DNA from: Desulfobulbus propionicus DSM 2032
GTDB taxonomy: Bacteria; Desulfobacterota; Desulfobulbia; Desulfobulbales; Desulfobulbaceae
Direction: 5' to 3'
Assembly (NCBI RefSeq): GCF_000186885.1
Contig: NC_014972.1
Coordinates: 3,180,001-3,212,000 of the forward strand
Length of the DNA: 32,000 bases
The notes under the pieces are model-generated. The model was not told the DNA's origin. It worked only from the letters and a program-made list of their open reading frames with translations, and made no database searches. Each line of letters opens with the position of its first letter. Positions within the stretch are counted from its first letter, which is position 1. The position numbers and the translations under genes were made by a program. Of this stretch, positions 7,918 to 30,331 are shown in pieces.

Positions 7918-8209
7918 TAACGGCGGATTTGAAAGGGGACTTGTCTCTTTGGTGGGAGGACCTAAGAATTCTTCGTTTTTCTTCCGTCTCCCGGAGTCGT
8001 GTTTGTCCCGCGACACGCTTCCCGCCCGGTTTCGCGCAGACCATTTCCGCAACACTCCCGCGCTTCAATTCCATCGACAGACATGCTTCACAAAAGGTAC
8101 ACAGCTTCTTGATCGACTTTCCCGTACGGGAAAACGCATGACAACGTTACGGTAGATTGCCAAATTTTTTGGTCTACTAATTGTTCGGTTCAACCACAAG
8201 GAGAAACAA

Positions 8210-9190
8210 ATGAAAGCACCAGTACGTGTAGCAGTAACCGGAGCTGCCGGCCAAATCAGCTATTCCCTCATCTTCCGCATCGCCAGCGGCAGCATGCTCG
8301 GACCTGATCAGCCTGTTATCCTGCAGCTTCTGGAGATCCCCCCGGCAATGGGCGCCCTTCAGGGCGTGTTGATGGAACTCAACGACTGCGCCTTCCCGCT
8401 GGTTGCGGGCGTCATCGCCACCGACGACCCCAACGTGGCCTTCAAGGACATCGACTTCGCCCTGCTGGTCGGTTCCCGTCCCCGTGGTCCGGGCATGGAA
8501 CGCTCCGATCTGCTCAACGCCAACGGCGCCATCTTCACCGTTCAGGGCAAGGCACTGAGCGACAACGCCAAACCCAACGTCAGAGTTCTGGTTGTCGGTA
8601 ACCCCGCCAACACCAACGCATTGATCTGCCTGAAAAATGCGCCGAAACTCAACCCGCGCAACGTCACCGCCATGATGCGTTTGGACCACAACCGGGCCAT
8701 GTCGCAGATCGCTGAAAAAACCGGCACCCACTCCACCAAGGTCGAGAAAGTCGTTGTCTGGGGTAACCATTCCTCCACCCAGTATCCGGACATCAGCTAC
8801 GCCACCGCCGACGGCAAAGCAGTCAAATCGCTGGTCACTGACGAGTGGAACAAGAACGAGTTCATCCCCACCGTTCAGCAGCGCGGTGCAGCCATCATCA
8901 AGGCCCGTGGCGCTTCCTCCGCCGCTTCCGCCGCTTCCGCCGCTGTTGATCACATGCGCAACTGGGCCTTGGGCAGCAACGGTCAGTGGGTCAGCATGGG
9001 CGTGTACAGCAAGGGGAATCCCTACGGTGTTGATCAGGATCTGATCTTCGCGTTCCCGATCACCTGCGAAAACGGCGAGTGGAAAATCGTCGAAGGTCTG
9101 GAGATCAGCGACTACAGCCGCGAAATGATCAAAAAGACCGAAGCCGAACTGCAGAGCGAAAGAGCCGCCGTGGCTGACCACATCAAGTAA
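8210..9190 (+). CDS. mdh: Malate dehydrogenase (NAD-dependent, cytoplasmic/Thermus-type LDH-like MDH)
   Basis: 326 aa. Motifs [14 protein letters not shown] (Rossmann), [45 protein letters not shown] and [11 protein letters not shown]. An AAGGAGA RBS lies 6 nt upstream. Confidence 0.95.
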
Positions 9191-9220
9191 GGCGATCTTT
9201 TTTATTCCGCGATTCCCGAA

Positions 9221-9250
9221 GGGGGTGCTCGATGAGCACCCCCTTTTTTT
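9221..9250 (+). terminator. Rho-independent terminator of mdh
   Basis: GGGGGTGCTC (9221-9230) pairs with GAGCACCCCC (9234-9243) across a 3-nt loop, followed by T7 (9244-9250). Confidence 0.85.
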
Positions 9251-9328
9251 ATCTGTTCGCCTGTCTTGACAAAATCGCTCGATGACCGCTACGCTCAAGC
9301 AATATCGTCTTTTACCAGGAGCGAATCG

Positions 9329-10243
9329 GTGTCCACTCTTTCAGCCGCACCTCTCAGAGAACTGATCTCGACCGGCCGCATTGTTGAGGCCAGAACCCTG
9401 CTCACCATGGAGCAAACGCTCCTGGACCAGGAGGAATACAGGGCATTGGAACAGGAATTGGATCGGCAATGGCAGGCGGCCAAGGAGCTGGTGACCCAAG
9501 CCGAAACCATGGAGGCCCAGGGGAGGACGGAAGAGGCCAAGTCCCTCTACGAATCCGTATTATCCCAACTCACTGATTATCCAGGCATCCAGGAGCATAT
9601 CAAGCGGATGGACGAGGCCCTTGCCCTGACCAGGGCTGTCCAGCGCCGCAGCCAACGCCGGCGCGAATCCACTGACGATGCCAGGTCGGCTCGCAGACGA
9701 CTGCTTCCCGCACTTCTGGGAACGGGCCTGGCAGGTGCTGCGGCGTTCCTCTTCCTGCTCTTCTTCCGCCCCGCACCGCAGCACTCCCCGCCAGCGCATT
9801 CGCTGCCGGTCACCCAGGAGCCGCCGGTATCGACCGGCACTCTCGAACCGGCGCCCATCGCCACGGTACCCGTCCCCCCCCCTGCACCAGAGGAGGTCAC
9901 GGTACAGCCCTCCGCACCGCCGCCGCCAGTGGTCAACGAACCGGCCACCGCTTCCGATCCGGCAACACAGCCTCCGCCCAGCCCCGAACTGACCGAGCAG
10001 CCACCCGAGCCTTCCGAACCGATAGCCCAAGATCGATACATCGTTCAACCCGGTGATTCGTTGAGCTCGATTGCAACACGGCAGTTTTGCGACCAAGGCG
10101 CATGGAAGACCCTCTACCGCCTCAACAAACACCTCGTCTCCGACCCAAAAAAATTACGTCCAGGCATGGAATTAAGCCTGGCAGGCATGAAAAGCCGCTG
10201 CCCGGATGTGTTGAAGACCGCCCCGTCAGAACCGCCGCGCTAG
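9329..10243 (+). CDS. Bitopic membrane protein: helical cytoplasmic N-domain, one TM helix, Pro-rich linker, C-terminal LysM domain
   Basis: LysM motif YIVQPGDSLSSIATRQF...WKTLYRLNKHLVSDPKKLRPGMELSL. TM segment LLPALLGTGLAGAAAFLFLLFF. Pro-rich region residues about 170-245. I prefer the GTG at 9329 (AGGAG at 9317-9321). The track start at 9266 is a TTG that coincides with a TTGACA -35-like hexamer directly after the mdh terminator. Confidence 0.75.
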   Translation: MSTLSAAPLRELISTGRIVEARTLLTMEQTLLDQEEYRALEQELDRQWQAAKELVTQAETMEAQGRTEEAKSLYESVLSQLTDYPGIQEHIKRMDEALALTRAVQRRSQRRRESTDDARSARRRLLPALLGTGLAGAAAFLFLLFFRPAPQHSPPAHSLPVTQEPPVSTGTLEPAPIATVPVPPPAPEEVTVQPSAPPPPVVNEPATASDPATQPPPSPELTEQPPEPSEPIAQDRYIVQPGDSLSSIATRQFCDQGAWKTLYRLNKHLVSDPKKLRPGMELSLAGMKSRCPDVLKTAPSEPPR

Positions 10244-10899
10244 TTGGCTTGTCGCCAGTCGAAGGGGGCTCGGGAAACAAACTCCATCGGCCGATACGTT
10301 GCTGGATGGAGAAAATGCAACCGGGTTGCATGCAGTTTAAGCGAATCTCCGTCCCTTCCCGCGCCGTAGAGACGATCGCCGACAATGGGGCAGCCCAATC
10401 CCAGGGGATGGCTGGCATGGAGACGGAGTTGGTGCGTGCGACCGGTCTGGGGAATAAATTCCACCAGGGTGCGCTGCCCACGTATTTCGATCCTGCGCCA
10501 GTGACTCACGCCCATCTTTCCTCGGACCGCGTCGTACACCTGATGAGGGCGATTGTCCGGATCCAGACGAAAAGCCAGGCAGATTTCTCCTTTTTCCCCG
10601 CTCACCACTCCTTCCAACAGGGCAAGATACTGTTTTTCCACCCGGCGCTCGGCAAATTGACGTGAGAGATGGCGGTGGGCAGCGCCGGTGAGGCCAAGGA
10701 CCATCACCCCCGCAGTGTCCATGTCCAGCCGATGAACCGCTGGCTGCTCGATGCACCACGGCACCATCTGCCGCAATCTGCTGACAACACAATCCTGCTT
10801 GTCTGGCCCCCGACCGGGAACGGCCAGCAGGCCACCCGGTTTGTCGACAACCGCCAATTCCTTGTCAAGATAAAGCACGGACAACGATTGCGTGGTCAT
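10240..10899 (-). CDS. RluA-family pseudouridine synthase (catalytic domain only, no S4 domain)
   Basis: Motifs VVDKPGGLLAVPG, the catalytic HRLDMDTAGVMVL and THQLRLH. I chose ATG 10899 (MTTQSLSVLYLDKE...), giving 219 aa. This start overlaps the upstream stop (ATGA). Confidence 0.85.
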   Translation of the reverse strand: MTTQSLSVLYLDKELAVVDKPGGLLAVPGRGPDKQDCVVSRLRQMVPWCIEQPAVHRLDMDTAGVMVLGLTGAAHRHLSRQFAERRVEKQYLALLEGVVSGEKGEICLAFRLDPDNRPHQVYDAVRGKMGVSHWRRIEIRGQRTLVEFIPQTGRTHQLRLHASHPLGLGCPIVGDRLYGAGRDGDSLKLHATRLHFLHPATYRPMEFVSRAPFDWRQAN

Positions 10900-11675
10900 G
10901 GCAAGCCGCACAGAAGAAAACCGAGGATGGGCTGACACTTGGCGGCGCAGGCCGGATAAAATCGTCCCTGCACCTTCGTGCCCGAAGCGTTGCTCGCCCC
11001 CCAATAGAACTCGGCCATGGCCTCCGGACGCAGGCCATGGCGCGCGGCGTGGTGGAGCAGTTTTGGCCCACAACAATCCCCGGTTCCGGAAGGCGGCGCG
11101 CCGTTGCCGATGAAGACACGAGGCAGGGGCTGGGTTGCACCACGAAAGTTGACCAGTTGATAGAGGCAATGAACTCGCTCCATCAGTTGGCGCGAGAGGG
11201 TTCTGCGTTGCGCGCGAAGCAGCTGGCGAGCGCTCGATCCATGGGGCAAAGCTGTCAGTTCCCGGCCCAACCGCTTGATTTCCCGCTCGGGTTCACCCAC
11301 GAGGGCGCCAAAGGCCGCCACATCAAACACCGGCCCCACCCAGCCCTCCACCTGCCACAATCCATTATATTGTCCGGAAAAGGCGCGGAGAACGATTCGC
11401 TTGCCCCCGGTATCCCGACATGACAGCACCCCGAACATCTTCCCACCGGCCTTGTCAAACAAGCACCGAGTATCGCAACGGGGATCCCGGAACCGTTCGG
11501 GAACCAGCCAGTCGATCCGTTGATGACGACATAATTGCCCCATCAGGTGGAGGCCGTCCTTGATGGCAGGCCGAACAGGCAGCGAATGGACGACACCGCA
11601 CCGGCAGCACCATCCGCCGCTGTCGGAATCGAGGAGCGGACCATCGCCCTCCCCTGCGGTCGAACGCAGCGACAT
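10896..11675 (-). CDS. Cys-rich protein of unknown function, translationally coupled to RluA
   Basis: Start chosen at ATG 11675 (GAGG 5 nt upstream) so that it does not overlap the DUF2905 gene; 259 aa. Motifs GKMFGVL...LRAFSGQ, GDCCGPKLL and FYPACAAKCQPILGFLL. From memory, this domain occurs fused N-terminally to long RluA-family proteins in other proteobacteria. Confidence 0.6.
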   Translation of the reverse strand: MSLRSTAGEGDGPLLDSDSGGWCCRCGVVHSLPVRPAIKDGLHLMGQLCRHQRIDWLVPERFRDPRCDTRCLFDKAGGKMFGVLSCRDTGGKRIVLRAFSGQYNGLWQVEGWVGPVFDVAAFGALVGEPEREIKRLGRELTALPHGSSARQLLRAQRRTLSRQLMERVHCLYQLVNFRGATQPLPRVFIGNGAPPSGTGDCCGPKLLHHAARHGLRPEAMAEFYWGASNASGTKVQGRFYPACAAKCQPILGFLLCGLP

Positions 11676-11704
11676 CGCGGCCTCGTCGTCGGCCCGCGCA
11701 ACCT

Positions 11705-11905
11705 CTATTTGCGAAACAGCCACAGCAGGAGGGAAATCACCACACTGACCAGAATGCAGCTGGTGAGGGGAAGAAAGAAGCGGAAATGCTCCCGGACGAT
11801 GACGATATCCCCGGGCAGGCGGCCAAGGGGCAGCTGGCGCAACCACGGCCATGCCACACCGAGCACCACGCAGACCACGCCAATGAGGATGAGCGTTCTG
11901 TTCAT
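11705..11905 (-). CDS. Small membrane protein, DUF2905-like
   Basis: 66 aa: MNRTLILIGVVCVVLGVAWPWL...LGRLPGDIVIVREHFRFFLPLTSCILVSVVISLLLWLF. It has two TM helices flanking the LGRLPGDI motif. Its ATG overlaps the EamA stop by 1 nt (TGATG). Confidence 0.7.
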   Translation of the reverse strand: MNRTLILIGVVCVVLGVAWPWLRQLPLGRLPGDIVIVREHFRFFLPLTSCILVSVVISLLLWLFRK

Positions 11906-12810
11906 CAAACTGCCTCCCGCCTCTGCCCGCTGGTTGTGTCCTGACTCACCAGCACCCCGGTGAACACCAGGGTACAGGCCATCCATTGCCAGAAATTCAG
12001 GCGCTCGCCCAACAGGAGAAAGCCAAACAGAATGGAAAAGACTGGAATCAGATTGACAAAGGCCGACGCCTGACTGGCCGGAATGCGGCTGACGCCAAAA
12101 TTATAGAGACCGTAGGCGCCGACACTGACCACGATGCCGAGATAGAGCACCGCGCCAATGCCGCCGATCGATAGCGCCGACGCCTGCACCGACGGCAGCA
12201 GCAGGACCGGAGCAAAAAACACCGCCCCGGTAAAGGCCTGGATACCGGTCAAAAAAAATGGATGGAGCTCTTTACTTAACCGTTTCATTAGAATAGTATA
12301 GCCCGTCGCGCACACCATGGCCATGAATTCAAGAAAGTTGCCCAGCGCCGGATGCGGGGCCTGGTCGGTTCCTTCGCCGCCCAGGCTGAGCCACAATGCC
12401 CCAGCGGCGGCAAGGAAAAATCCGCCGATGGTGCGCCGGGTGATCCGTTCACCAAGCATCAGACCTGCGGCCAGGGCGACCATGAGCGGCAGCATGGTGG
12501 TGATCATCGAGGCCTGCGAGGCGCTGGTGTAGACCAGCGCCAACGATTCAAACAAAAAATAGCAACAGGGCTCGCACAAGCACATGCATGCCAGCGGCAC
12601 CATGTGGTGGCGCCGCAGGCCCGCCCTGGCAAACGATCGGTAAAATGGAAGGAAACAGAGCGAGGCAACCACCATCCGTCCCAGAATAACCGCCAGGGGA
12701 TGCATCTCCTGAAAGCTGTATTTCAACGCCACAAAAGAACTGCCCCACAGTACCATGGCAGATAGCAGCGCCATGATAGGCAGCATTCTTTGAACGCCAT
12801 CCGTCATCAT
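11905..12810 (-). CDS. EamA/DMT-superfamily transporter (10 TM helices)
   Basis: About 301 aa with duplicated EamA halves (LLSAMVLWGSSFVALK... and ...IPASQASAFVNLIPVFSILFGFLLLGE). The start is uncertain: TTG 12813, ATG 12810/12807 or ATG 12786. Confidence 0.8.
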   Translation of the reverse strand: MMTDGVQRMLPIMALLSAMVLWGSSFVALKYSFQEMHPLAVILGRMVVASLCFLPFYRSFARAGLRRHHMVPLACMCLCEPCCYFLFESLALVYTSASQASMITTMLPLMVALAAGLMLGERITRRTIGGFFLAAAGALWLSLGGEGTDQAPHPALGNFLEFMAMVCATGYTILMKRLSKELHPFFLTGIQAFTGAVFFAPVLLLPSVQASALSIGGIGAVLYLGIVVSVGAYGLYNFGVSRIPASQASAFVNLIPVFSILFGFLLLGERLNFWQWMACTLVFTGVLVSQDTTSGQRREAV

Positions 12811-12823
12811 CAACCCGTCAGAA

Positions 12824-12842
12824 CCACCGGCAAAGCCGGTGG
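12824..12842. repeat. IS200 right-end subterminal hairpin CCACCGG-CAAAG-CCGGTGG
   Basis: 7-bp stem and 5-nt loop read directly. Two further hairpins lie between it and the tnpA stop: ACCGCT-caa-AGCGGT (12858-12872) and GACCACCATATGGTGGTC (12891-12908). Confidence 0.7.
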
Positions 12843-12910
12843 CTTGAAAGACTGTGAACCGCTCAAAGCGGTCTCTTTAAAATATTATCTGACCACCATA
12901 TGGTGGTCGC

Positions 12911-13342
12911 CTATTTAAACAAGTTCAGTTGTTCGACTCGCTGATCCTCTTGCTCCTGGTTACGGATATATGCGCGAACCATTGCCTCGTCGGCACCAAC
13001 GGTTGACACAAAATAGCCCCGTGCCCAAAAGTGCATCCCATTGTAGTTCTTCTTTTGCCCAAGGTAATTGCGTGCGATGTAAATCGCACTTTTCCCTTTC
13101 ATGTAGCCCACAACCTGGGCCACCGAATACTTCGGCGGGATCGACAGTAGCATGTGCACATGATCGGGCTGCAAATGCCCCTCGACAATCCGACTTTCTT
13201 TTTGCCGTGCAAGATCATGGAACACATCACCCAGATTTTTCCGAAGTTGGCCATAGAGTATTTTTCTTCGGCATTTCGGTATCCACACTACATGGAACTT
13301 GCAATCCCATCTTGTGTGGCTTAAACATTGTATGTCGTTCAT
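12911..13342 (-). CDS. tnpA: IS200/IS605-family Y1 (HUH) transposase TnpA
   Basis: 143 aa. Motifs KFHVVWIPKCRRKIL, the HUH motif PDHVHMLLSIPPKYS and the catalytic Tyr region WARGYFVSTVG. Confidence 0.95.
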   Translation of the reverse strand: MNDIQCLSHTRWDCKFHVVWIPKCRRKILYGQLRKNLGDVFHDLARQKESRIVEGHLQPDHVHMLLSIPPKYSVAQVVGYMKGKSAIYIARNYLGQKKNYNGMHFWARGYFVSTVGADEAMVRAYIRNQEQEDQRVEQLNLFK

Positions 13343-13391
13343 GAAGCCTCCTTTTTCGTGACTTTGACCGGTTCACGAGGCGGGAGGCTTC
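13343..13391 (-). promoter_or_regulatory. Hairpin sequestering the tnpA Shine-Dalgarno
   Basis: GAAGCCTCC (13343-13351) pairs with GGAGGCTTC (13383-13391). On the minus-strand mRNA the GGAGG directly before the AUG is the 3' arm, a known IS200 feature. Confidence 0.65.
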
Positions 13392-13424
13392 TTTATTTTG
13401 CAGGAACTGTCAAACTGTTGTTGT

Positions 13425-13443
13425 CCCCCGGCAAAGCCGGGGG
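13425..13443. repeat. IS200 left-end subterminal hairpin CCCCCGG-CAAAG-CCGGGGG
   Basis: 7-bp stem with the same loop and inner 4 bp as the hairpin at 12824-12842. Confidence 0.7.
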
Positions 13444-13472
13444 TTTACCCAAGGGAAATTATTGTTCACGCC

Positions 13473-15938
13473 ATGCACATGCACACCCCCCTTCGCCGGA
13501 TACGCCGGTTCTGTAGCCGCACCCTGCTTCTTTTGCCCGCCCTGGCTCTGCTCGCCGGTCCCGTTCCCGCATCGCACGGCGCGGCCTATCAACCAAACCA
13601 GGTCAGCGCGCAACAGACCGTCGGCCTATACCAGAATATTCCGGGCCTGACCAGCCAACAAATGGAATACGGCAAGGCGGCTATCCCCAAGCTGCACTAT
13701 AACGCCCAGCGGATCCTCCGCAAGATCTGCGCATTGCCGGGGGTGAACTTCGACTACGCCAAGCAGGTGATCGAGCTCCTCGGCCGCGAACGATTCACCT
13801 ATGAACAGGTCCTGACCTACGAAGCGCTCAGCAGCCTGAACACCATGGACATCAAGAACGGTATCGCCGGGCTGGACACGGTCAAGGCGATGAGCTTCGA
13901 GGGGGGCCGTTCGTTCCGCGCCTTTGCCGGCATGCAGGGAGTGACCGCCAACCAGGCCCTGAGCATGATCTCGCAACTCAACGAACTGGATGACGCCAAC
14001 AACCGCGCCGCCCAGGCCTTTTTCAGCATCAAGGGCATGCGGGTCGATATCGCCCAGAAAGGACTGCCGACCCTGATGCGCCTGAGAAACAACCAGGCCA
14101 AGGCCGCCGAGGCTTACGCCAAGATCCCGACCATGGACACCGAGACCATGCTCGACGGCCTGGAACTGATCGCCAAGCTGTACCAGGACGATGCCTGGAA
14201 TGCCCGCTGCCTGTTCACCAACAAATCGGTGACCGCGCGGGACGCCTGGAACTGGCTGGTGAGTTACTTTGCCCTGCCGACCAACGTCCAGGAGGCTCAG
14301 TACGACAAGCTCGACAGCCAGCAAAAATCAATCCTCCTTCAGGCCCTGTACGAAGGCGGCACGGAAATTCTCTGGAAGATCAATAATCTTCACGCAGTTA
14401 CCGACCAATATGGCTATGAAATCTCCGAGGCGGCGCTGAACAGTTGGTCCATGCAGCAGCTGCAGGCCAAGTTCAACGAGCTGGTTCCCTCGGTTCGGGC
14501 CCGCTACAGCGGCTTTGCCAGCGCCGGCAGGGGCCAGGCCGTGGCCATCCTCAAACAGGCCACCTCCGCCGCCCGGGTGCAGACCGCCCGTGATCTGACC
14601 ATCGCCAATGCCTATGCGGTCATGGCCCAGGGCAGCGAGCTGTATGATTCATCCTTCCGCGATATCATGGTGCCGGTCCTCCAGTCCCGGATCGACAGCC
14701 GTTTTCAGGGCGACCTGCTGGCCTTTCTACGTTCCATCGATCCGGGCAACCGCTTGGTTTCCGACTTCATTTCCAGTTGTGCCCAGAAAGGCAAGCTGAC
14801 CGTCTTTTTCCCCACCGACGCCGGCAAACAGAAGGAGATTCTCAGCCTGGTGGCCTCCTCGGCCTTCCAGAACGAGGACTCCATCCTGCTTTTTTCCGCG
14901 ACCCTGAGCCACCTGCTCAAGGTGCTCACTCCCGATGCCCGGTCGTACCTGATTGGCCTGATGGCCGAGAACAGCGAGGCGGAAAACGCCGCCTTTTCCA
15001 AACTGGTCACCGTCATCCTCCAGTACTACCTGCAGACCTACCCCGAGTTGCTCGGCCCGGCTGACCGCACCCTCATCAGCCGGCTCATCGTCCGCCACGG
15101 CGCGGTCAACCTCGACCGCTATCAGGTAACCCCCTTTGCCGAATGGAAACAGGACGGCCGTTTGGCTTCGGTGTCCATGTTTCACCCGGATGACGACGGC
15201 CGGCAATCCTTTGTCTCCAACGCCAACCTGCTGCTGAGCAACGGCTACAAACTGACCGCCTCGCAGCAGTACACCATCCCGCAGATGACCCCGGCGCTCG
15301 CCGCCGAGATCCAGCGGTATATCGGCTCCGGCCTGGTGTCGCTGTTCCAGGCCATGCGCAATCGCCATTTTGCCGTGGCCTTCACCAAACAGGTAAACGG
15401 CATCACCATCGTCCACACCCAGTTTGTCTATTCGGACATGGACAACCAGATGGAGATGCTCGACCGGTTCGTCCGCTCTGGAGACGAAATGCTAGCGCAG
15501 CGCGGTCACAGCTACTGGCGCTCCGAGCAAATCATCGAGCCGCTGACCAAACTGATCGAGGAAAACAGGGTGAGCGAATCCGAGCTCCGGGGCAAACAAC
15601 GCTTCCTCAGCCTTGGCTCGTGCGGCGGCGTCAAGGCCTACACCACTCTGACCCGGCTGTTTGCCTCGTCGGTGGACATCCTTGCCTCCATCGGGACCGG
15701 CTTGGCGATGATCAATGACCCCTACAACAAGATGTTTTTTGAGATCATCGCCACCAACAACACCAACATCTCCTGGAAGACCATGGCCCAGCAATCGGCC
15801 TCCATCTTCCAGAGCGACCGGGGCCAGGACTACCTCCTGCCCGGCTCGCTGACCGCCATCCTCCACAAGATCCTGGACGAGACCGAACAAGCCACCGGAT
15901 CGACGCCGCGGAACCGCTTCGAGCGTTCCCGCGGCTAA
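13473..15938 (+). CDS. Large secreted protein of unknown function (signal peptide, 6 x 32-aa helical repeats, C-terminal candidate Cys-nucleophile domain)
   Basis: Start chosen at ATG 13473 (or 13479): MHMHTPLRRIRRFCSRTLLLLPALALLAGPVPASHG/AAYQ is a signal-peptide-like N-terminus. I recognise no family. See findings for the repeats and the QRGHSYW...LSLGSCGG motif. Confidence 0.7.
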   Translation: MHMHTPLRRIRRFCSRTLLLLPALALLAGPVPASHGAAYQPNQVSAQQTVGLYQNIPGLTSQQMEYGKAAIPKLHYNAQRILRKICALPGVNFDYAKQVIELLGRERFTYEQVLTYEALSSLNTMDIKNGIAGLDTVKAMSFEGGRSFRAFAGMQGVTANQALSMISQLNELDDANNRAAQAFFSIKGMRVDIAQKGLPTLMRLRNNQAKAAEAYAKIPTMDTETMLDGLELIAKLYQDDAWNARCLFTNKSVTARDAWNWLVSYFALPTNVQEAQYDKLDSQQKSILLQALYEGGTEILWKINNLHAVTDQYGYEISEAALNSWSMQQLQAKFNELVPSVRARYSGFASAGRGQAVAILKQATSAARVQTARDLTIANAYAVMAQGSELYDSSFRDIMVPVLQSRIDSRFQGDLLAFLRSIDPGNRLVSDFISSCAQKGKLTVFFPTDAGKQKEILSLVASSAFQNEDSILLFSATLSHLLKVLTPDARSYLIGLMAENSEAENAAFSKLVTVILQYYLQTYPELLGPADRTLISRLIVRHGAVNLDRYQVTPFAEWKQDGRLASVSMFHPDDDGRQSFVSNANLLLSNGYKLTASQQYTIPQMTPALAAEIQRYIGSGLVSLFQAMRNRHFAVAFTKQVNGITIVHTQFVYSDMDNQMEMLDRFVRSGDEMLAQRGHSYWRSEQIIEPLTKLIEENRVSESELRGKQRFLSLGSCGGVKAYTTLTRLFASSVDILASIGTGLAMINDPYNKMFFEIIATNNTNISWKTMAQQSASIFQSDRGQDYLLPGSLTAILHKILDETEQATGSTPRNRFERSRG

Positions 15939-15949
15939 ACAAGGCAACC

Positions 15950-17320
15950 ATGCCCCTGTACACCCGCGAAACCCTGACCGAGCTGCTTGTCCGGGCGGCG
16001 GCCGCCCCTTCGCAGGTGTATCTACTGTTTGGTGAGCGTTACCTCTGCCGCAACGCGGCCGAGCAGTTGGAACAGGTGCTGCTGCAAAAAACGGGCGGGA
16101 CGGTACACGCCATCGACGGCGACCAGGAAGACAGTACCGCCACTTTGGCTAAACTTCGCGGTTACAGCCTGTTGCCGGGGCGTCAGCTCTACAGGGTAAC
16201 TGACACCCGGCTCTTTGTGTCCAAACAGGTGGCCAAACGCATCTGGGATCGGGTTGTTGCTGCCCATGCGGACAATAAACCGGAACAGGCGGGCCGCGCC
16301 TTGCGGGCCTTGCTGGAAAGCGGCGGTCTGGATCCACGGTCCCCGAACAATCTGCTCGACACCATGCCGGCGGCCGAATGGCAGCATTGTTTCGGCTTTG
16401 CCCGTCCCTCCGGCGACCTCAGCTGGACCAGTGCCTTGCTGACCGCTCAACCGAATCACACCGGCCGACCCGCGACCGTGACCGACCCGGCTGAACAACT
16501 CGGCAACGCATTGGCCGCTGGTCTGCCGGCAAGCAACTTCCTCATCCTCCTTGCCGAGGAGGTGGACAAGCGCAAAAAGCTGTTCAAGCAGCTGAAAGAC
16601 GGGCAGACGGTTGTCGACCTGAGCGTCGAATCCGGGGCCGGAGCCAAAGCGCAGAAGGAACAAAAAGCCGTTCTCCACGAACTGGTCCGGAAGACCCTGG
16701 CCGAGCAGGGCAAGACCCTGGCTCCCGGGCTCATCGACCTGCTCGTTGAGCGGGTGGGCTTTCATCCCGTGGCGCTGGTCATGGAACTGCGCAAGGTGAT
16801 GGCCTATGTCGGCGAGCGCCGCCAGATCGATCACGCCGATATCGATCTCCTGGTCGGCCGCACCCGGCAAGAGGCGCTGTTTGAACTGACCACCGCTCTT
16901 GCCGCCGGGAATCGTGAGCAAACCCTCGTGATTGGCGATCGCCTTCAGGAAAACGGCATTCATCCCCTGGCCGTGGTGGCGACGCTCCGCAACTTTGTCC
17001 GCAACCTGTTGCTCTGCCGGGCCCTGTTGGAACAACCCGACATTCGCTTTCAGCCGACCATGTCCGCCGCCGCTTTTCAGAACACCTGCCTGCCACGTCT
17101 CAAGGACCGACCGCAGTGGAAAAAAGAATTGGGCGGTCATCCCTTTGCCCTGTACATGCAATTCAAAACAGCCGCCCTCTTCCCTCTTCCGGTCCTCACC
17201 GGCTGGATGCAGCTGCTCCTCCGGGCGGAACTCCGTCTCAAGGGTTCCTCGATCGCGGCCCCGATCGTGCTCCAGCATCTGCTCCTCTCCATGCTGTCCA
17301 TGGAGACCGCAAAAGAATAA
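15950..17320 (+). CDS. holA: DNA polymerase III delta subunit (HolA), unusually long
   Basis: 456 aa. The N-terminus QVYLLFGERYLCRNAAEQL and the C-terminal LVGRTRQEALFELTTALAAGNREQTLVIGDRLQENGIHPLAVVATLRNFVRNLL align by eye with E. coli HolA domains I and III. The gene starts 11 nt after the upstream stop. Confidence 0.7.
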   Translation: MPLYTRETLTELLVRAAAAPSQVYLLFGERYLCRNAAEQLEQVLLQKTGGTVHAIDGDQEDSTATLAKLRGYSLLPGRQLYRVTDTRLFVSKQVAKRIWDRVVAAHADNKPEQAGRALRALLESGGLDPRSPNNLLDTMPAAEWQHCFGFARPSGDLSWTSALLTAQPNHTGRPATVTDPAEQLGNALAAGLPASNFLILLAEEVDKRKKLFKQLKDGQTVVDLSVESGAGAKAQKEQKAVLHELVRKTLAEQGKTLAPGLIDLLVERVGFHPVALVMELRKVMAYVGERRQIDHADIDLLVGRTRQEALFELTTALAAGNREQTLVIGDRLQENGIHPLAVVATLRNFVRNLLLCRALLEQPDIRFQPTMSAAAFQNTCLPRLKDRPQWKKELGGHPFALYMQFKTAALFPLPVLTGWMQLLLRAELRLKGSSIAAPIVLQHLLLSMLSMETAKE

Positions 17321-17339: not shown

Positions 17340-17367
17340 TTGCAAAATCAAAAGCGGGCATTACAAT
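17340..17367 (+). promoter_or_regulatory. Candidate sigma70 promoter for clpS-clpA (TTGCAA-N16-TACAAT)
   Basis: Hexamers at 17340-17345 and 17362-17367, about 145 nt upstream of clpS. Confidence 0.35.
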
Positions 17368-17513: not shown

Positions 17514-17831
17514 ATGGCAAAAGAAGATTCCATCGTTCAAGACAAAATTCAAACCCGTGACAAGGAACAGCTGCAAGAACCACCGCTGTACAAGGTGCTG
17601 TTGCATAACGACGACTACACCACCATGGATTTCGTGGTGATGATTCTGCAGACAGTTTTTCATAAGAATACGGACGAGGCCACCAGAATCATGCTCAACG
17701 TCCATCACCAGGGCGTGGGCATCGCGGGTGTTTATACCCGTGAAATCGGAGAAACCAAGGTGGCGATTGTGCATCGGCTGGCAAAAAGGAACCAATTTCC
17801 GCTGCGATGCTCGCTGGAAAAGGATTGTTGA
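17514..17831 (+). CDS. clpS: ClpS, N-degron adaptor of ClpAP
   Basis: 105 aa. PPLYKVLLHNDDYTTMDFVVMILQTVFHKNTDEATRIMLNVHHQGVGIAGVYTREIGETK is a textbook ClpS core. Confidence 0.95.
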   Translation: MAKEDSIVQDKIQTRDKEQLQEPPLYKVLLHNDDYTTMDFVVMILQTVFHKNTDEATRIMLNVHHQGVGIAGVYTREIGETKVAIVHRLAKRNQFPLRCSLEKDC

Positions 17832-17908: not shown

Positions 17909-20179
17909 ATGTTGAGTAAAGAGTTGGAATTGGCCCTGATCAAAGCGATCAAGGAAGCAAAGAATCACCGCCACGAATACGTCACCGTCGAGCACATGCT
18001 GTATGGGTTGCTCCATGACGACCTGGCCCGACACATCATTGATAAATGCGGTGGCAACAATGAAAACATCAAGGAACGCCTGGAGCGTTTCTTTGAAACC
18101 GGCATGCCGGTGATGAAGGAAGGCGACAGCGAACCGGCCCAGACCGTGGCTTTCAACCGGGTGTTGCAACGTGCGGTCAGTCACGTGCAGAGTTGCGGCA
18201 AAAAACAGGTGGACACCGGTGACGTGCTGGTGTCGATCTTCACCGAACCCGACTCGCATGCCGTCTATTTTCTCGGCAGCGAAGGGGTGGGACGTCTGGA
18301 GGTGGTCGAATACATCTCCCACAGTCTACCCGAATATCTGCAGAGCGAGCCGTTTCGCCAGCCGCCTCCGGGCCAGCAGCCAACGAAAAAACGGCAGGAC
18401 AAACAAACGGATGCCCTGGATGAATTCACGGTCAATTTCGCCAAACGTGCGGCCGAGGGCGGCATTGATCCGCTGATCGGCCGTGATCAGGAATTGTACC
18501 GGATGATGCAGGTGCTTTGCCGCCGGAAAAAGAACAATCCGTTGCTCGTTGGCGAACCGGGAGTGGGCAAAACGGCCATGGCCGAGGGATTGGCCCTGCG
18601 GATTCATGAAGACAGCGTTGCCCGGCTGGACGCCAACCCGGATCCCAAGAAACTGGTTCCCGACCTGTTGCAGGACGCGGAAATTTACATGCTGGATCTG
18701 GGCACCCTGGTGGCGGGCACCAAATACCGGGGCGATTTCGAGAAGCGGCTCAAGGAAGTGGTGGCGGCCATTGAGAAGAAGGAAAAAGCCATTTTATTCA
18801 TCGATGAGATGCATACCATCATCGGAGCCGGCGCCACCAGCGGCGGATCGATGGATGCGTCCAACCTGCTGAAGCCGGCGCTGCAGGCAGGGACCATCCG
18901 CTGCATTGGCTCGACGACCTACGAGGAATACAAGAATCATATCGAAAAGGATCGGGCCTTGTCCCGCCGCTTCCAGAAAATCGACATCGCTGAACCGTCG
19001 GTGGAGGACACCTGCCGTATCCTGCGCGGTCTCCAGTCCCGGTATGAGCAGCATCACCAGATTCGCTACGCCAAAACCGCCATCGAGGCCACGGCAGAAT
19101 TGGCGCACCGGTACATCAACGACCGCTTTCTTCCGGACAAGGCCATCGACGTGATGGATGAGGTCGGTGCCTTTTTCCGTCTGAGCGGTAAAACCGGACG
19201 GACCGTCGGAGTTCGCGATGTGGAGCAGATCGTCGCCAAAATCGCCCGGGTTCCGGTCACCAGCAAGACCGGCAGCGATGTCAGCGAACTGCGCCATCTC
19301 GACGAAAAACTCAAATCCGTCATTTTCGGTCAGGACGAGGCCATCGAGGCGTTGGTCAAGGCGGTCAAGCGTTCGCGGGCGGGCTTGGGAAATCCGCAGT
19401 CACCGACAGGCTCTTTTCTCTTCGCCGGCCCCACCGGCGTCGGCAAGACCGAGGTGGCCCGGCAGCTCGCGGCGTCTCTCGCCGTCCATTTCGAACGGTT
19501 CGATATGAGCGAGTACATGGAAAAACATGCGGTTGCCCGGCTGATAGGCGCGCCTCCCGGCTACATCGGCTTTGACCAGGGCGGACTGTTGACCGATGCG
19601 ATTCGCAAGTACCCTTATACCGTCCTCCTCCTTGACGAGATTGAAAAAGCCCATCCGGATGTGTTCTCGATCCTGTTGCAGGTCATGGACCATTCGACCC
19701 TGACCGACAATGCCGGTCGGCGGGCTGATTTCCGTAATGTCATCCTCATCATGACCACCAATGCCGGCGCCCGTGAGATGAGCGAGCGGACCATCGGTTT
19801 TCTAGGCGATTCCAAGGGCAAGGAACAGAAGGCGATCAAGAACCTCTTTTCGCCGGAGTTCCGTAACCGGCTTGACGCCACCATTAGTTTTGCGCCGCTT
19901 GAGCTGGCCACAGTGGAAAAGGTGGTCGACAAGATGGTGCACGAGTTGCAACAGCAATTGGCCGACAAAAAGGTCGAAATCTCCCTCAGCTCCGCAGCCC
20001 GCTCCTGGTTGGCCAAGGAAGGCTACGAACCGGCCTTCGGCGCCCGTCCCTTGCGTCGGTTGATCATGAAGGAGATTGGCGACGTGCTTACCGAGGAAAT
20101 CCTCTTCGGCCGCTTGGCCAAGGGCGGCAGGGTCAAAATTGGTCGCAAGAACGACACCACCACCTTCACCTATCTCTGA
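17909..20179 (+). CDS. clpA: ClpA, AAA+ unfoldase of ClpAP
   Basis: 756 aa. Clp N-domain, two AAA+ modules ([18 protein letters not shown]; [13 protein letters not shown]) and the ClpP-binding-loop context IGF (TIGFLG). GAGGA RBS 9 nt upstream. Confidence 0.95.
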
Positions 20180-20318: not shown

Positions 20319-20438
20319 TCTTCGCAATTAAGAGTGTTATTCATTGCCGCCAGGTGTTTTTTTCTTCCGATTGATTCAGCTCGGGGGGAACAACCGCCGG
20401 GGTATATTCCAGGGCATCAACGAACAGGAGGGAGAGGA

Positions 20439-21992
20439 ATGGTCAAAAAATTTTCCATGCTGGTCGTGGCAGGGTTGATCGCGCTACCCACACTCGCGTC
20501 CGCCGGTGGCGGCAAAAGCAATGCTGATCTGGAGCAAAAAATTGAGGAATTGTCGCGGCAGCTCGATGAGCTGAAAGCCCAGATGGCCAAGCAGAACGAA
20601 ACCATCACCGAAACCAGCGGCAAGGTCGACGACATGGACACCATGCTCGAGGAAAAATCCGAGCAATGGGATCTTGCATCGCGCTTCCAGTTCGACGGCG
20701 ATTTCCGCGCCCGGGGCGATTATTACAATGCGAGCACGGTGTTTGCAGCTGGAACACCCTTGTTTGACGGATACGACAGTCTCGGTAATCCACAGTTCAG
20801 GCCAGCGGGTGGTGGTCAGGAAAACGACACCATCATGACCAACCGTCTCCGCCTGAATATGCGGGTCAAGGCCACCGAAAACCTGGAGTTCAAAGGCCGG
20901 TTGGCCATGTACAAGGCGTGGGGCATGCAATCCACGCCCGATGGCCTTGGCGGCGGCTTTCCAGTTTTTGACGGCAATACCACCCGTACCCCCGATGACA
21001 GTGCCCTCTATGTCGACCGCGCCTTTGTCAACTGGAACAACATCGGCGGCGCTCCGGTTTGGTTTTCGATCGGCCGTCGTCCTACCACCGACGGCCCGCC
21101 CGCGCAACTGCGCATGGGGAACGAGGAACGCATGGCCACACCCGTGGCCTACATGGACTATCCCTTTGACGGCATTTCGCTCGGGTATGCCTATGACTGG
21201 GGGACCGACGCCCTCGGCGAAGGCCGCATTCGCTTCTGTTATGGCCGTGGCTTTGAAAATGGGCTGGAAGACGATACAGGGGCCAGCATCGACGATACCG
21301 ATTTTGCCGGCATTGATTGGGATATCTTGAAACAGGGACCGCGTTTTCTCAACCTCCAATCGTTTGGCGCCTTTAATCTCTTCAACTACCCAACCTTCAG
21401 CAGCGATCTTGTGAACTACGGCGCGCCAAGCGAGTACGGCGCCCAGATCAATCTCGGCAATGTTTACCACACCAGCGCGGTCTATATGGACAAGATCAAC
21501 AACCTGAACTATTTCATCGCTGGTGGCTGGAGCCGTACCGATCCGAACGAGAACGGCATGTTCAATGACTACACCAGCGCGACCCCAAAAAATACCGATG
21601 CGGAAGACGGCTATTCCGTCTATGCCGGCGTACGCTACGACCTGGACAATCTTGGCCTCAAACTCGGCGCGGAATACAACTACGGCTCCCAGTACTGGAT
21701 CGCTTTCTCGCCCGGCCACGACGATCTCTATATGTCGAAACTGGCCACCCGGGGCAGCGCCTACGAACTGTATATGATTTACGATTTACCCACCGGTGAG
21801 GCGATCTCGAAATATGCGCAGACCTTCATCCGTCTGGGGTGGCAGTACTATGATTACAACTATTCCGGCGGATTTGATTGGAACCTCAAGCCGTACGATT
21901 TGGATGACGAAAAAATGCAAATGCAGATGATGGGCCTGGATCCGGTTGAGAGCGCCAATCAGGTCTATCTCACCTTTGAGGCCTACTTCTGA
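20439..21992 (+). CDS. Outer-membrane beta-barrel protein with N-terminal coiled coil (DUF3373-like, porin-like)
   Basis: Start at ATG 20439 (AGGAGGGAGAGGA upstream). Signal peptide MVKKFSMLVVAGLIALPTLASA. Coiled coil DLEQKIEELSRQLDELKAQMAKQ. Alternating amphipathic strands are rich in Y/G/N/D. The protein ends with the OMP signature ...YLTFEAYF. Confidence 0.75.
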   Translation: MVKKFSMLVVAGLIALPTLASAGGGKSNADLEQKIEELSRQLDELKAQMAKQNETITETSGKVDDMDTMLEEKSEQWDLASRFQFDGDFRARGDYYNASTVFAAGTPLFDGYDSLGNPQFRPAGGGQENDTIMTNRLRLNMRVKATENLEFKGRLAMYKAWGMQSTPDGLGGGFPVFDGNTTRTPDDSALYVDRAFVNWNNIGGAPVWFSIGRRPTTDGPPAQLRMGNEERMATPVAYMDYPFDGISLGYAYDWGTDALGEGRIRFCYGRGFENGLEDDTGASIDDTDFAGIDWDILKQGPRFLNLQSFGAFNLFNYPTFSSDLVNYGAPSEYGAQINLGNVYHTSAVYMDKINNLNYFIAGGWSRTDPNENGMFNDYTSATPKNTDAEDGYSVYAGVRYDLDNLGLKLGAEYNYGSQYWIAFSPGHDDLYMSKLATRGSAYELYMIYDLPTGEAISKYAQTFIRLGWQYYDYNYSGGFDWNLKPYDLDDEKMQMQMMGLDPVESANQVYLTFEAYF

Positions 21993-26040: not shown

Positions 26041-26327
26041 TCAAGCCTCTTGATCAAGTGTTGCTTTCGGAATTATATGGAAAATGCGCCCGTTGGCGCA
26101 AAAAAGCCATGCTTTTACAACAAAAAAAGAATGCCGAGATCCCTGGTGTTTGTCAAGCCCTGGGGGCTTGACGGAAAAAATGAATATGAAAAGTTATTCT
26201 ACCATAATATGACCACATCGGCTTGACTTTTCACCTCTTTTACGAGTACATTTATTATTTTTTGTCGACCTTCTCAGTCGCATCGGGTTGCGCACAGCGC
26301 ACCCTTCGAGATACATTGGAGTTTTAA

Positions 26328-27602
26328 TTGAAGATTCAAGCAATTAACGGTTTCAAGGATATCCTGCCGGATACGGCGGTGCGATGGCGCCACATCGAGC
26401 AGCGCGCCCGCGATATCTTCGAGCGCTTCGGCATGCGTGAAATCCGCACGCCGATCATGGAAAAGACCGAACTCTTCGTGCGCTCCATCGGTGAAGCCAC
26501 CGACGTGGTCGAAAAGGAAATGTACACCTTTATCGACAAGGGCATCACCATGCGGCCCGAGGCCACGGCGTCGATCATGCGTGCCTTCATCGAACACGGC
26601 CTCCATGTCCAGCAGCCGATCCAGCGGCTCTATGCCATCGGCCCCATGTTTCGCCATGAACGGCCGCAAAAGGGGCGGTTGCGCCAATTCCATCAGCTGG
26701 ACGCCGAAATCATTGGCGCGGTGGAGCCACGGGTGGACGCCGAATTGATTGCCATGGGCCAGATGCTGCTCGACGAACTCGGCCTTTCGGTCAGCCTGGA
26801 ACTCAATTCCTTGGGTTGCCCTATATGTCGCCCCCCCTTCAAGCAACGACTGGTCGCCTTTCTTGAACAAACCAGCGAGGGGTTGTGCGAGGACTGCAAG
26901 CGCCGCACCCAGACCAACCCCCTGCGCGTACTGGACTGCAAGAAACCAACCTGCCGTGCCTTGGTCAAGGATGCGCCGTCCCTGCTCGATGCCCTCTGTC
27001 CCGACTGCGACCGCCACTTCCAGGAAGTCCAAGGAGCGTTGCAGGGGCTGGAGATCCCCTTTAGGCTCAACCCGTTCATGGTTCGAGGACTTGACTACTA
27101 CACCCGCACCACCTTCGAATTTCTCACCACCGACCTGGGGGCGCAGGCGGCGGTGGGCGCAGGCGGTCGTTACGATGGCCTGATTGAAGAACTGGGCGGC
27201 CCTCCGCTGTCTGGCATCGGTTTCGCCATGGGGCTGGAACGCATCGCCCTGCTGCTCGAACAGCGGCCGGAGGGTGAACAGCCGACCGACACCACGGATA
27301 TTTTCATCGCCGCCCTCGGCCAAGCCACCCTTGCACCCTGCAGCCAATTGGCGCACGGGCTGCGCAAGCAGGGAATCAGGGTGGGGATCGATTACAGCGG
27401 GCGCGGCCTCAAAGCATTGCTCAAACAAGCGGCACGGATCAATGCCCGCTTTACCTTGATCGTCGGTGATGACGAATGGGCGAGCCAGCAAGGCATCCTC
27501 AGAAACATGACGACCCAGGAACAGCAACCTGTTGCCCTGGTCGGCACCACGGACGAACTCAGCCGACGGTTGGCGGAACATTTGCAGGTATTAAGACACT
27601 GA
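26328..27602 (+). CDS. hisS: Histidyl-tRNA synthetase
   Basis: 424 aa. Motifs GFKDILP, the class II motifs (YTFIDKGITMRPEATAS, FRHERPQKGRLRQFHQ, GGGRYDGL) and a C-terminal anticodon-binding domain. TTG start with GGAG 6 nt upstream. Confidence 0.95.
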   Translation: MKIQAINGFKDILPDTAVRWRHIEQRARDIFERFGMREIRTPIMEKTELFVRSIGEATDVVEKEMYTFIDKGITMRPEATASIMRAFIEHGLHVQQPIQRLYAIGPMFRHERPQKGRLRQFHQLDAEIIGAVEPRVDAELIAMGQMLLDELGLSVSLELNSLGCPICRPPFKQRLVAFLEQTSEGLCEDCKRRTQTNPLRVLDCKKPTCRALVKDAPSLLDALCPDCDRHFQEVQGALQGLEIPFRLNPFMVRGLDYYTRTTFEFLTTDLGAQAAVGAGGRYDGLIEELGGPPLSGIGFAMGLERIALLLEQRPEGEQPTDTTDIFIAALGQATLAPCSQLAHGLRKQGIRVGIDYSGRGLKALLKQAARINARFTLIVGDDEWASQQGILRNMTTQEQQPVALVGTTDELSRRLAEHLQVLRH

Positions 27603-29593: not shown

Positions 29594-30331
29594 TCAACCC
29601 TGCTCCCGCCACCTGCCGTCGATCAACAGTTCATGGGGCCGAAAGGCCTGCTTGTAGCCCATGCCGGCGTGGCCGTCGATCCAGTAGCCAAGATACAAAT
29701 AATCAATGCCGCGGGTGGCGCAGATGTGATTGAGGGTCAGGATGTTCAAGGTGCCTGGGCTGCGCCATCCTTGCTGCGGATCGAAATAGAAATAAACCGC
29801 GTTGAGCCAGGCGGGCGCCGCATCGACCACCGCCACCCCCAGCAGTTGTGTACCCACTCGGTAGCGGATCTCGAAACAGCGGCTGATGGTAGTGATAAAA
29901 AAGCCGGTATAATAGCTGTCGGCGCTGCTCCGCCCTTCGGGAAAGCGGGTAGAGAGAAAGCGCTGCAACAGCGCCAGGTTTTCCTTGGACATGGTCAGGG
30001 GGGCGATCTCCACCGCCACATCCTGATTCTTTTTCCACACCCGCCGCTGGTTGCGGTTGGGACAAAGCCGGTCCGGACGGATGCGAATGGGCACACACTG
30101 CCTGCATTCCGGACAGTGCATGTTGTACATGCAGTTGCCGTTGCGGCGGTACCCGTAGGCCAAAAAATCGCCCATGGTGGCATCGTCGATCGGGGCAAGG
30201 ATCGCCTGGTGGTACACCGCCTTGGTGCCCATGCCATACGGGCAGTCGGCGGCGGTGTGGATGAAGAATTGCCGCAACTCTCTGGCAAGGCTCGGCGGGA
30301 TATCGTCCTGCCTATCGTTTCGACCGGTCAT
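29594..30331 (-). CDS. bpt: Bpt, Asp/Glu leucyltransferase (arginyl-tRNA-protein-transferase family, N-degron pathway)
   Basis: 245 aa. ATE_N Cys motif (CPYGMG...CPECRQCVPIR) and ATE_C (YFYFDP...SPGTLNIL...YLYLGYWI). Confidence 0.9.
   Translation of the reverse strand: MTGRNDRQDDIPPSLARELRQFFIHTAADCPYGMGTKAVYHQAILAPIDDATMGDFLAYGYRRNGNCMYNMHCPECRQCVPIRIRPDRLCPNRNQRRVWKKNQDVAVEIAPLTMSKENLALLQRFLSTRFPEGRSSADSYYTGFFITTISRCFEIRYRVGTQLLGVAVVDAAPAWLNAVYFYFDPQQGWRSPGTLNILTLNHICATRGIDYLYLGYWIDGHAGMGYKQAFRPHELLIDGRWREQG

Follow-up and report, generated by a model that had tools for sequence, protein, structure and literature searches.

A stretch of 32,000 nucleotides from Desulfobulbus propionicus DSM 2032 (the window, by which we mean the whole stretch at its full length) carries, directly upstream of holA and on the same strand, an open reading frame (ORF) of 821 amino acids (aa), here called gene X. 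The locus raises the question of what this exported protein does and why its gene should be paired with that of a DNA polymerase III subunit. The best explanation we can offer, to which we give somewhat less than an even chance, is that X acts in the periplasm as a thiol enzyme in the growth of the envelope or of peptidoglycan, and is co-expressed with holA through the inheritance of an ancient operon. If so, X would represent a new enzyme family in cell-envelope growth, present order-wide, including the cable bacteria, with relatives in Bacteroidota and the candidate phylum Gracilibacteria. The features needed at the outset are as follows:

13473–15938, forward strand: gene X, coding for an 821-aa exported protein (from the ORF listing and homologues)
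13473–13580, forward strand: predicted Sec-type signal peptide of X, residues 1–36 (from hydropathy and the N-termini of 35 homologues, with cleavage placed by the -3/-1 rule)
15950–17320, forward strand: holA, coding for the DNA polymerase III δ subunit, 456 aa (TIGR01128, E = 2.5e-39; PF21694; synteny)

Gene X, its predicted export and its superfamily

The ORF listing of the window gave a frame from 13398 to 15938 on the forward strand opening with TTG, within which the ATG at 13473 yields the 821-aa product, as the original prediction, made from the DNA letters alone, had reported. Since the extension sits within an IS200 insertion (12818–13458), the TTG start and the resulting 846-aa form were discarded as an artefact. 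The true start is either the ATG at 13473 or that at 13479; the latter would give 819 aa, the length called for X in near-identical strains. Horizontal acquisition was rejected, since the GC content of the gene (0.606, compared with 0.595 for the window) and its GC content at third codon positions match those of its neighbours, indicating that the gene is native.

The N-terminus had been described as signal-peptide-like with an Arg-rich n-region, and closer inspection bore this out. A basic n-region (RRIRR) precedes a hydrophobic core (LLLLPALALLA; Kyte–Doolittle (KD) hydropathy 1.68 over residues 13–31) and a cleavage-type site (ASHG/AA). This type of N-terminus is common to all 35 aligned homologues, none of which has a lipobox Cys at the cleavage site, and the lipobox pattern [LVI][ASTVI][GAS]C is absent from the first 45 residues of X. 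Beyond the signal peptide only residues 729–747 exceed a KD value of 1.5, and these form a buried strand and loop. X accordingly shows the features of a Sec-exported periplasmic protein, namely a cleavable signal peptide (by hydropathy), no extra transmembrane segment and no lipobox. The Arg-Arg pair of the n-region is not conserved among the homologues, for which reason a twin-arginine translocation (Tat) signal was rejected; together with the shared type of N-terminus, this argues for Sec rather than Tat export and points to X being a soluble periplasmic protein.

The gene had also been called an orphan, a label that did not survive the homology searches. More than 320 homologues were found at 50–100% identity, all of about 820 aa; an exhaustive search of cluster representatives at the 50% level returned 93, with full-length relatives down to 27% identity, and in a one-genome-per-species scan X was carried by at least 176 species. 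The 80 loci kept from the species scan belong mostly to Desulfobulbus, other Desulfobulbaceae and the cable bacteria Electrothrix and Electronema, and more distant full-length members occur in Desulfofustis and Ca. Desulfobia. The module that begins near residue 370 and extends to the C-terminus is also found in proteins built differently, among them a 1034-aa protein of Gracilibacteria and proteins of 600–1400 aa elsewhere. A metagenome scan, using as query a tight sub-alignment of the C-terminal domain, returned 415 loci, most of which code for exported Bacteroidota-type proteins of 710–790 aa with an X-like layout and a signal peptide that again lacks a lipobox. Among the metagenomic relatives of the C-terminal domain, L100 (1–10026, forward strand), L107 and L126 are either giant proteins, with more than 3341 aa before the contig breaks off, or tandem duplicates with lengths of 930–1200 aa. 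Obvious signal peptides are lacking, which suggests other biology in those lineages.

The statement that X could be assigned to no family was, by contrast with the orphan label, upheld. The checks that had been proposed (Pfam and PDB searches, then AlphaFold with Foldseek) were run and gave no confident match to a characterised family. Noise apart, Pfam and NCBIfam returned no match to X as a single sequence, to 40 diverse members at E <= 10 or to 10 distant relatives, and neither phmmer nor profile searches found a sequence match in the PDB. Gene X is not described in the literature that we searched on its motifs, on lptE with Desulfobulbus and on the cable-bacteria elongasome. Some homologues bear the JGI name "protein-disulfide isomerase-like protein with CxxC motif", which we rejected because X has no CxxC; its Cys residues are at positions 14, 86, 246, 436 and 717, and no thioredoxin-type Pfam match was found for X or the 40 members. 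On sequence grounds, X belongs to a widespread superfamily that is undescribed and unnamed.

Synteny of X with holA

The stop codon of X (TAA) ends at 15938 and the ATG of holA, identified by TIGR01128, is at 15950, leaving the 11-nt same-strand gap (ACAAGGCAACC) that had been predicted. To place this arrangement in context, 86 relative loci were analysed, 80 of which had enough downstream sequence. In 66 of the 80, holA lies directly downstream of X on the same strand, with estimated gaps that have a median of 8 nt, are <=30 nt in 62 of the 66 and include several overlaps. Even Desulfofustis, with other genes upstream and an X of only 34% identity, keeps the pairing. In most of the order Desulfobulbales, X thus probably heads an ancient operon with holA, and co-transcription of the two genes, which had been proposed from the short gap, is likely.

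The linkage can be lost. Every one of the 14 loci in which holA is not next to X falls in the cable-bacteria clade (12 from Electrothrix or Electronema and two metagenome-assembled genomes with the same arrangements), which keeps X at 46–50% identity, and distant members of the superfamily were never adjacent to holA in the contexts sampled. A survey had been suggested of whether homologues always stand beside holA; they do so in the 66 loci given above, while in the 14 loci of the cable-bacteria type X has moved away.

The coupling of an exported protein to holA had been considered unexpected, which overstates the case in the light of the E. coli K-12 genome. There, the cluster leuS–lptE–holA–nadD–cobC–rsfS–rlmH–mrdA–mrdB–rlpA–dacA lies on one strand, and lptE and holA share one base. 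As in X–holA, the gene for an exported envelope protein stands immediately upstream of holA, in the same direction, with near or true overlap, so that such a coupling is not unprecedented. The two arrangements differ further upstream: X is preceded by a divergent eamA, whereas leuS is absent from the window and from the flanks of the relatives.

The same comparison raises the possibility that X does the work of LptE, or is another factor of outer-membrane or lipopolysaccharide (LPS) assembly, in the ancestral lptE slot. The position of X directly upstream of holA matches that of E. coli lptE, and some contexts away from holA fit as well: an outer-membrane β-barrel gene before X in Electrothrix, a PMT_2 (ArnT-like) glycosyltransferase gene downstream of it in Electronema, and an MsbA-type ATP-binding cassette (ABC) exporter gene after the X relative in the Bacteroidota-type clade. 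However, leuS is not adjacent to X, and the proteins differ in kind. LptE is a two-layer α/β lipoprotein of about 190 aa that plugs LptD, whereas X has 821 aa (some four times the size), three domains and no lipid anchor site. Homology to LptE (PF04390) was rejected, as the family profile gave an hhalign probability of 0.4% against E. coli LptE and Pfam and NCBIfam gave no match; no LptE chain occurred among the top 50 Foldseek PDB matches of either the full-chain or the domain model. In addition, the invariant Cys–His motifs described below suggest an enzyme and not a plug, and the conserved module of X also occurs in Gracilibacteria, a lineage of the candidate phyla radiation that is not known to have LPS or an outer membrane. 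The earlier description of a larger, unrelated protein in the lptE slot was right in that X is unrelated to LptE and lies upstream of holA, but we found no evidence that X replaced LptE, and we consider an LptE-like role improbable.

A direct link between X and replication or the δ subunit, for instance a signal of envelope status to the replisome, is the reading to which we give by far the least credence. In its favour are the great closeness and age of the pairing (holA directly downstream in 66 of 80 loci, with a median gap of 8 nt and some overlaps) and the unusual length of the holA product in this order (451–456 aa). Against this, X carries an export signal while δ is cytoplasmic, the cable bacteria keep X apart from holA, the distant superfamily members are never beside it, and lptE–holA of E. 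coli shows that such a pairing need not mean a shared function. If X is a periplasmic thiol enzyme, it would have no direct role in replication; the X–holA operon would instead tie its expression to a growth-linked housekeeping gene, as in lptE–holA and mrdAB–rlpA of E. coli.

As a separate observation on holA, the length of its product holds throughout Desulfobulbales (the window, L001–L003 and L084), compared with 343 aa in E. coli. TIGR01128 covers residues 186–362 only and the N-terminal Pfam domain was barely detected (E = 0.027); the partial alignment and the length together suggest that the N-terminal third of the protein is expanded or divergent.

Domain layout, invariant residues and the proposed chemistry

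The full-chain AlphaFold2 (AF2) model of X, built on 35 homologues, had a mean predicted local distance difference test (pLDDT) score of 83.5 and a predicted template modelling (pTM) score of 0.76. The C-terminal domain modelled in isolation (pLDDT 80.6, pTM 0.82) folds as in the full chain. The signal peptide is disordered in the model, and the remainder is laid out as follows, all on the forward strand:

13596–14387, forward strand: N-terminal α-solenoid, residues 42–305, about seven helical hairpins (AF2, pLDDT >90)
14427–15155, forward strand: helical middle domain, residues 319–561 (AF2)
14637–14663, forward strand: superfamily-invariant ELY-D-S393-S394-F-R-D motif of the middle domain
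15159–15896, forward strand: C-terminal α/β domain, residues 563–808, putatively catalytic and forming the conserved superfamily core (AF2 and alignments)
15183–15200, forward strand: H571-P-D573-D-D575-G576 loop right after the first β-strand, with D573 and D575 superfamily-invariant
15501–15518, forward strand: R677-G-H679-S-Y-W motif right after strand 673–677, with invariant His679 as putative general base
15615–15629, forward strand: G715-S-C717-G-G719 between strand 711–715 and helix 720–729, with invariant Cys717 as putative nucleophile

The solenoid contains a 32-residue sequence repeat (the self-similarity of the profile peaks, with z = 4.3, for an offset of 32, and harmonics follow at 64 and 96) and probably binds a substrate or partner. 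Invariance was scored over 40 sequences, down to 17% identity, and 16 residues were found to be invariant: S393, S394, D573, D575, Y592, R677, G678, H679, S680, Y681, C717, N748, E757, W768, Y787 and P790. The pattern L[YF]xSS[FY] is conserved in distant relatives, and the motifs D.DG, RGHSY and GSCG are retained in the weakest matches. At minimum, a family of about 800 aa with a confident model, these 16 invariant residues and no Pfam or NCBIfam model is well suited to family curation.

In α/β folds, an active site is usually marked by a cluster of invariant polar residues where parallel strands reach their C-terminal ends. In the model of X, His679 and Cys717 each lie <=2 residues from the ends of consecutive strands, and GSCGG is found at a strand-to-helix junction, resembling a nucleophile elbow. 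The invariant D573-x-D575, R677-G-H679-S-Y and S716-C717 all stand at C-terminal strand ends in the model, where doubly-wound α/β enzymes place their active sites, and we infer from the topology of the model that His679 and Cys717 are close enough to form a catalytic pair. Following its export by the Sec pathway, X would act as a Cys717/His679-dependent hydrolase or transferase on a cell-envelope polymer, most likely the peptidoglycan of the Rod system, with the solenoid holding the substrate or a partner. Support for an envelope thiol enzyme comes from the invariant residues at the strand ends, from the envelope contexts in which X is found away from holA and from the E. coli precedent.

Those contexts are best seen in the cable bacteria. 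In all six loci of the Electronema clade, X ends the run mreB–mreC–(mreD)–mrdA–rodA–X, the slot that in E. coli, after mrdA–mrdB (rodA), is held by rlpA, the gene of another exported protein that acts on peptidoglycan; homology between X and RlpA was rejected (hhalign probability 0.1%) and Pfam scans found no DPBB or SPOR domain in X. In all eight loci of the Electrothrix clade it is the β-barrel gene that precedes X; four of the eight also have a GH3 (NagZ-like) gene downstream in convergent orientation, and two have rlmH nearby. Independently, the gene of a distant relative of 376 aa is grouped on one strand with an FtsW/RodA-family gene, PAP2, BacA and SecDF. In the Bacteroidota-type clade, the X relative is flanked by a divergent two-component system and by the MsbA-type exporter gene on the same strand, with the atp operon beyond it downstream. 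These contexts are suggestive of an envelope and peptidoglycan theme, but they come from few independent lineages. As a further detail of Electronema, X in L078 is followed by a 255-aa ORF of no known kind (8343–9110, forward strand; conserved in L081) and then by the PMT_2 gene (9046–10602, forward strand).

The chemistry proposed here, the periplasmic location and the link to elongation are similar to those of the MepS-type endopeptidases of the NlpC/P60 family and of the YkuD L,D-transpeptidases, a likeness that is one of functional analogy only. The folds are unrelated, NlpC/P60 being papain-like α+β and YkuD a β-sandwich, whereas the domain of X is a three-layer α/β fold; the order of His before Cys in X also differs from that of NlpC/P60, and neither NLPC_P60 nor YkuD was matched in Pfam by X or the 40 members. 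Comparison with the α/β-hydrolases gave a mixed result. Their nucleophile elbow, G-x-Nu-x-G between a strand and a helix, is matched by GSCGG of X, whereas their order of nucleophile, acid and His is not, the sole invariant His (679) preceding the Cys. No Abhydrolase-type Pfam match was found for X, and no α/β-hydrolase occurred among its top 50 Foldseek PDB matches; a single weak lipase/esterase match to the domain was found in BFVD (rank 29, E = 0.17, probability 0.21).

A periplasmic cysteine protease in the style of TPR–CHAT or clan CD, processing exported proteins and not peptidoglycan, would have a similar general plan. As in those enzymes, helical repeats are followed by a C-terminal α/β domain of about 250 aa, and an invariant His precedes the Cys, each of them after a hydrophobic β-strand; the acidic D-D-D loop after β1 might moreover form a pocket specific for basic residues. 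The details differ, however: the His of X is followed by Ser instead of Gly, and its Cys lies in a G-x-C-x-G elbow, which is no feature of clan CD. Homology was rejected, with an hhalign probability of 0.16% against caspase-3. CHAT and Peptidase_C11, C13, C14 and C25 gave no Pfam match at E <= 10 in the 40 family members, and no clan-CD structure and no caspase–hemoglobinase fold appeared among the top 50 Foldseek PDB matches of either model. We regard such a protease as a poor prospect, if a slightly better one than a substitute for LptE.

Foldseek searches with the C-terminal domain gave weak, generic α/β/α matches only. The nearest topologies were P-loop G-domains and peptidyl-tRNA hydrolase, which share with X a three-layer α/β/α sandwich, a functional loop after β1 and a β-hairpin (target-side TM score about 0.5). 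The loop of X at the P-loop position is acidic (HPDDDG), in contrast to that of the G-domains, and X is predicted to be exported to a compartment where nucleotides are absent. A GTPase identity was rejected, given that regular-expression searches found neither Walker A (GxxxxGK[ST]) nor NKxD and that the Foldseek E values were >=3e-3.

These matches bear on another reading, in which X does not catalyse a reaction and serves in the periplasm as a scaffold or binding protein; its repeats would bind a protein or polymer, and its C-terminal residues a metal or ligand. Two thirds of X consist of α-helical repeat or bundle, and the top whole-chain Foldseek matches, none of them significant, are solenoid scaffolds. 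By its sequence the D-x-D-G loop resembles a calcium-binding loop, and the closest topologies of the α/β domain are nucleotide-binding G-domains and not hydrolases. On the other hand, Walker A and NKxD are absent from X and nucleoside triphosphates from the periplasm, and 16 residues invariant down to 17% identity, with Cys and His at strand ends and a G-x-C-x-G junction, are more typical of catalysis. A scaffold role seems unlikely to us, though less so than the protease. Were it correct, X would be an ordinary conserved hypothetical gene with inherited synteny.

Several findings weigh against X being a thiol enzyme of the envelope. Foldseek, run with the full model against the PDB and with the isolated domain against the PDB and BFVD, gave no match at E <1e-3; the best E was 3e-3, with TM scores <=0.5, to G-domains and peptidyl-tRNA hydrolase. 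With no significant neighbour, the modelled fold gives hydrolase chemistry no independent support. The spatial proximity of His679 and Cys717 is read from the topology of the model, and binding of a metal or ligand is another role that the invariant Cys, His and Asp might have. Some distant members have no obvious signal peptide. The neighbours of the metagenomic relatives reflect mainly clade-level synteny (histidine kinase and response regulator, ABC exporter, atp operon), and the neighbour analysis found no SEDS genes beside them. The other contexts sampled consist of housekeeping genes or clade-level synteny as well, and three short-form relatives were uninformative. The association with peptidoglycan comes from two independent lineages only, Electronema and L088.

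A bolder form of the thiol-enzyme proposal may also be considered. In it, X would found a new superfamily of exported thiol enzymes whose α/β domain is unlike any solved structure; it would be accessory to Rod-system elongation or envelope assembly, and would have displaced lptE from the holA operon, which would place envelope growth and replisome supply under joint expression. This more specific proposal strikes us as unlikely, to about the same degree as the scaffold. Should the thiol-enzyme proposal itself hold, an operon of an exported envelope gene with holA would be a recurring design that unrelated proteins can fill.

The IS200 element and neighbouring genes

The genes around the X–holA pair are the following:

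11905–12813, reverse strand: transporter gene of the eamA family, ancestrally the divergent neighbour of X (PF00892, E = 1.4e-46)
12818–13458, reverse strand: IS200 element of 641 bp, with tnpA at 12911–13342 on the reverse strand (Y1_Tnp, PF01797, E = 8e-39)
17514–17831, forward strand: clpS, conserved after holA
17909–20179, forward strand: clpA, conserved after holA

The identity of the insertion upstream of X as an IS200 had been correctly recognised, while its distance had been put at about 30 nt; the element ends about 14 nt before the ATG of X, and the start codon of tnpA lies 130 nt upstream. It has a Y1 HUH transposase, is short and varies in presence between strains, as is characteristic of IS200, and its GC content is 0.487 compared with 0.595 for the window. 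Its ends were placed by junction mapping, and it is missing in both L171 and L172, which are further samples of this strain. The element splits the spacer of about 25 nt between the divergent start codons of eamA and X, displacing the native upstream region of X. It is recent, strain-specific and incidental to the X family.

In the sequences free of the element (L171, 4000/4001; L002, 7999/8001), the annotated eamA (reverse strand) and X (forward strand) abut, their ATGs being about 25 nt apart, so that either each promoter must be situated within the other gene or the transcripts have almost no leader. Upstream of X in the window, we found no σ70-like promoter and no clear Shine–Dalgarno sequence. 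Within the element, an inverted repeat (GAAGCCTCC, 13343–13351, and GGAGGCTTC, 13383–13391) overlaps the Shine–Dalgarno sequence of tnpA and also reads as a terminator-like site, a hairpin followed by a T-run, on the forward strand (13377–13391), just upstream of X.

Divergent eamA precedes X in most relatives, and clpS–clpA follow holA in nearly all loci with X–holA. The latter two probably have their own promoter, because the gap between holA and clpS measures 193 nt and contains a σ70-like site at 17340–17367. Directly after clpA lies a gene for a DUF3373 protein (20334–21992, forward strand; E = 1.7e-133), whose position is kept in L001–L003. Three further ORFs of considerable size in the window had no Pfam match (8177–9298, 10896–11852 and 26274–27581, all on the reverse strand); that at 10896–11852 corresponds to a conserved gene of about 259 aa between the DUF2905 and pseudouridine synthase genes in L001–L003 and L171. 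Lastly, three genes of the N-degron pathway occur within 13 kb, namely clpS, clpA and a gene for an ATE_N/ATE_C aminoacyl-tRNA–protein transferase (Bpt-like; 29594–30331, reverse strand).

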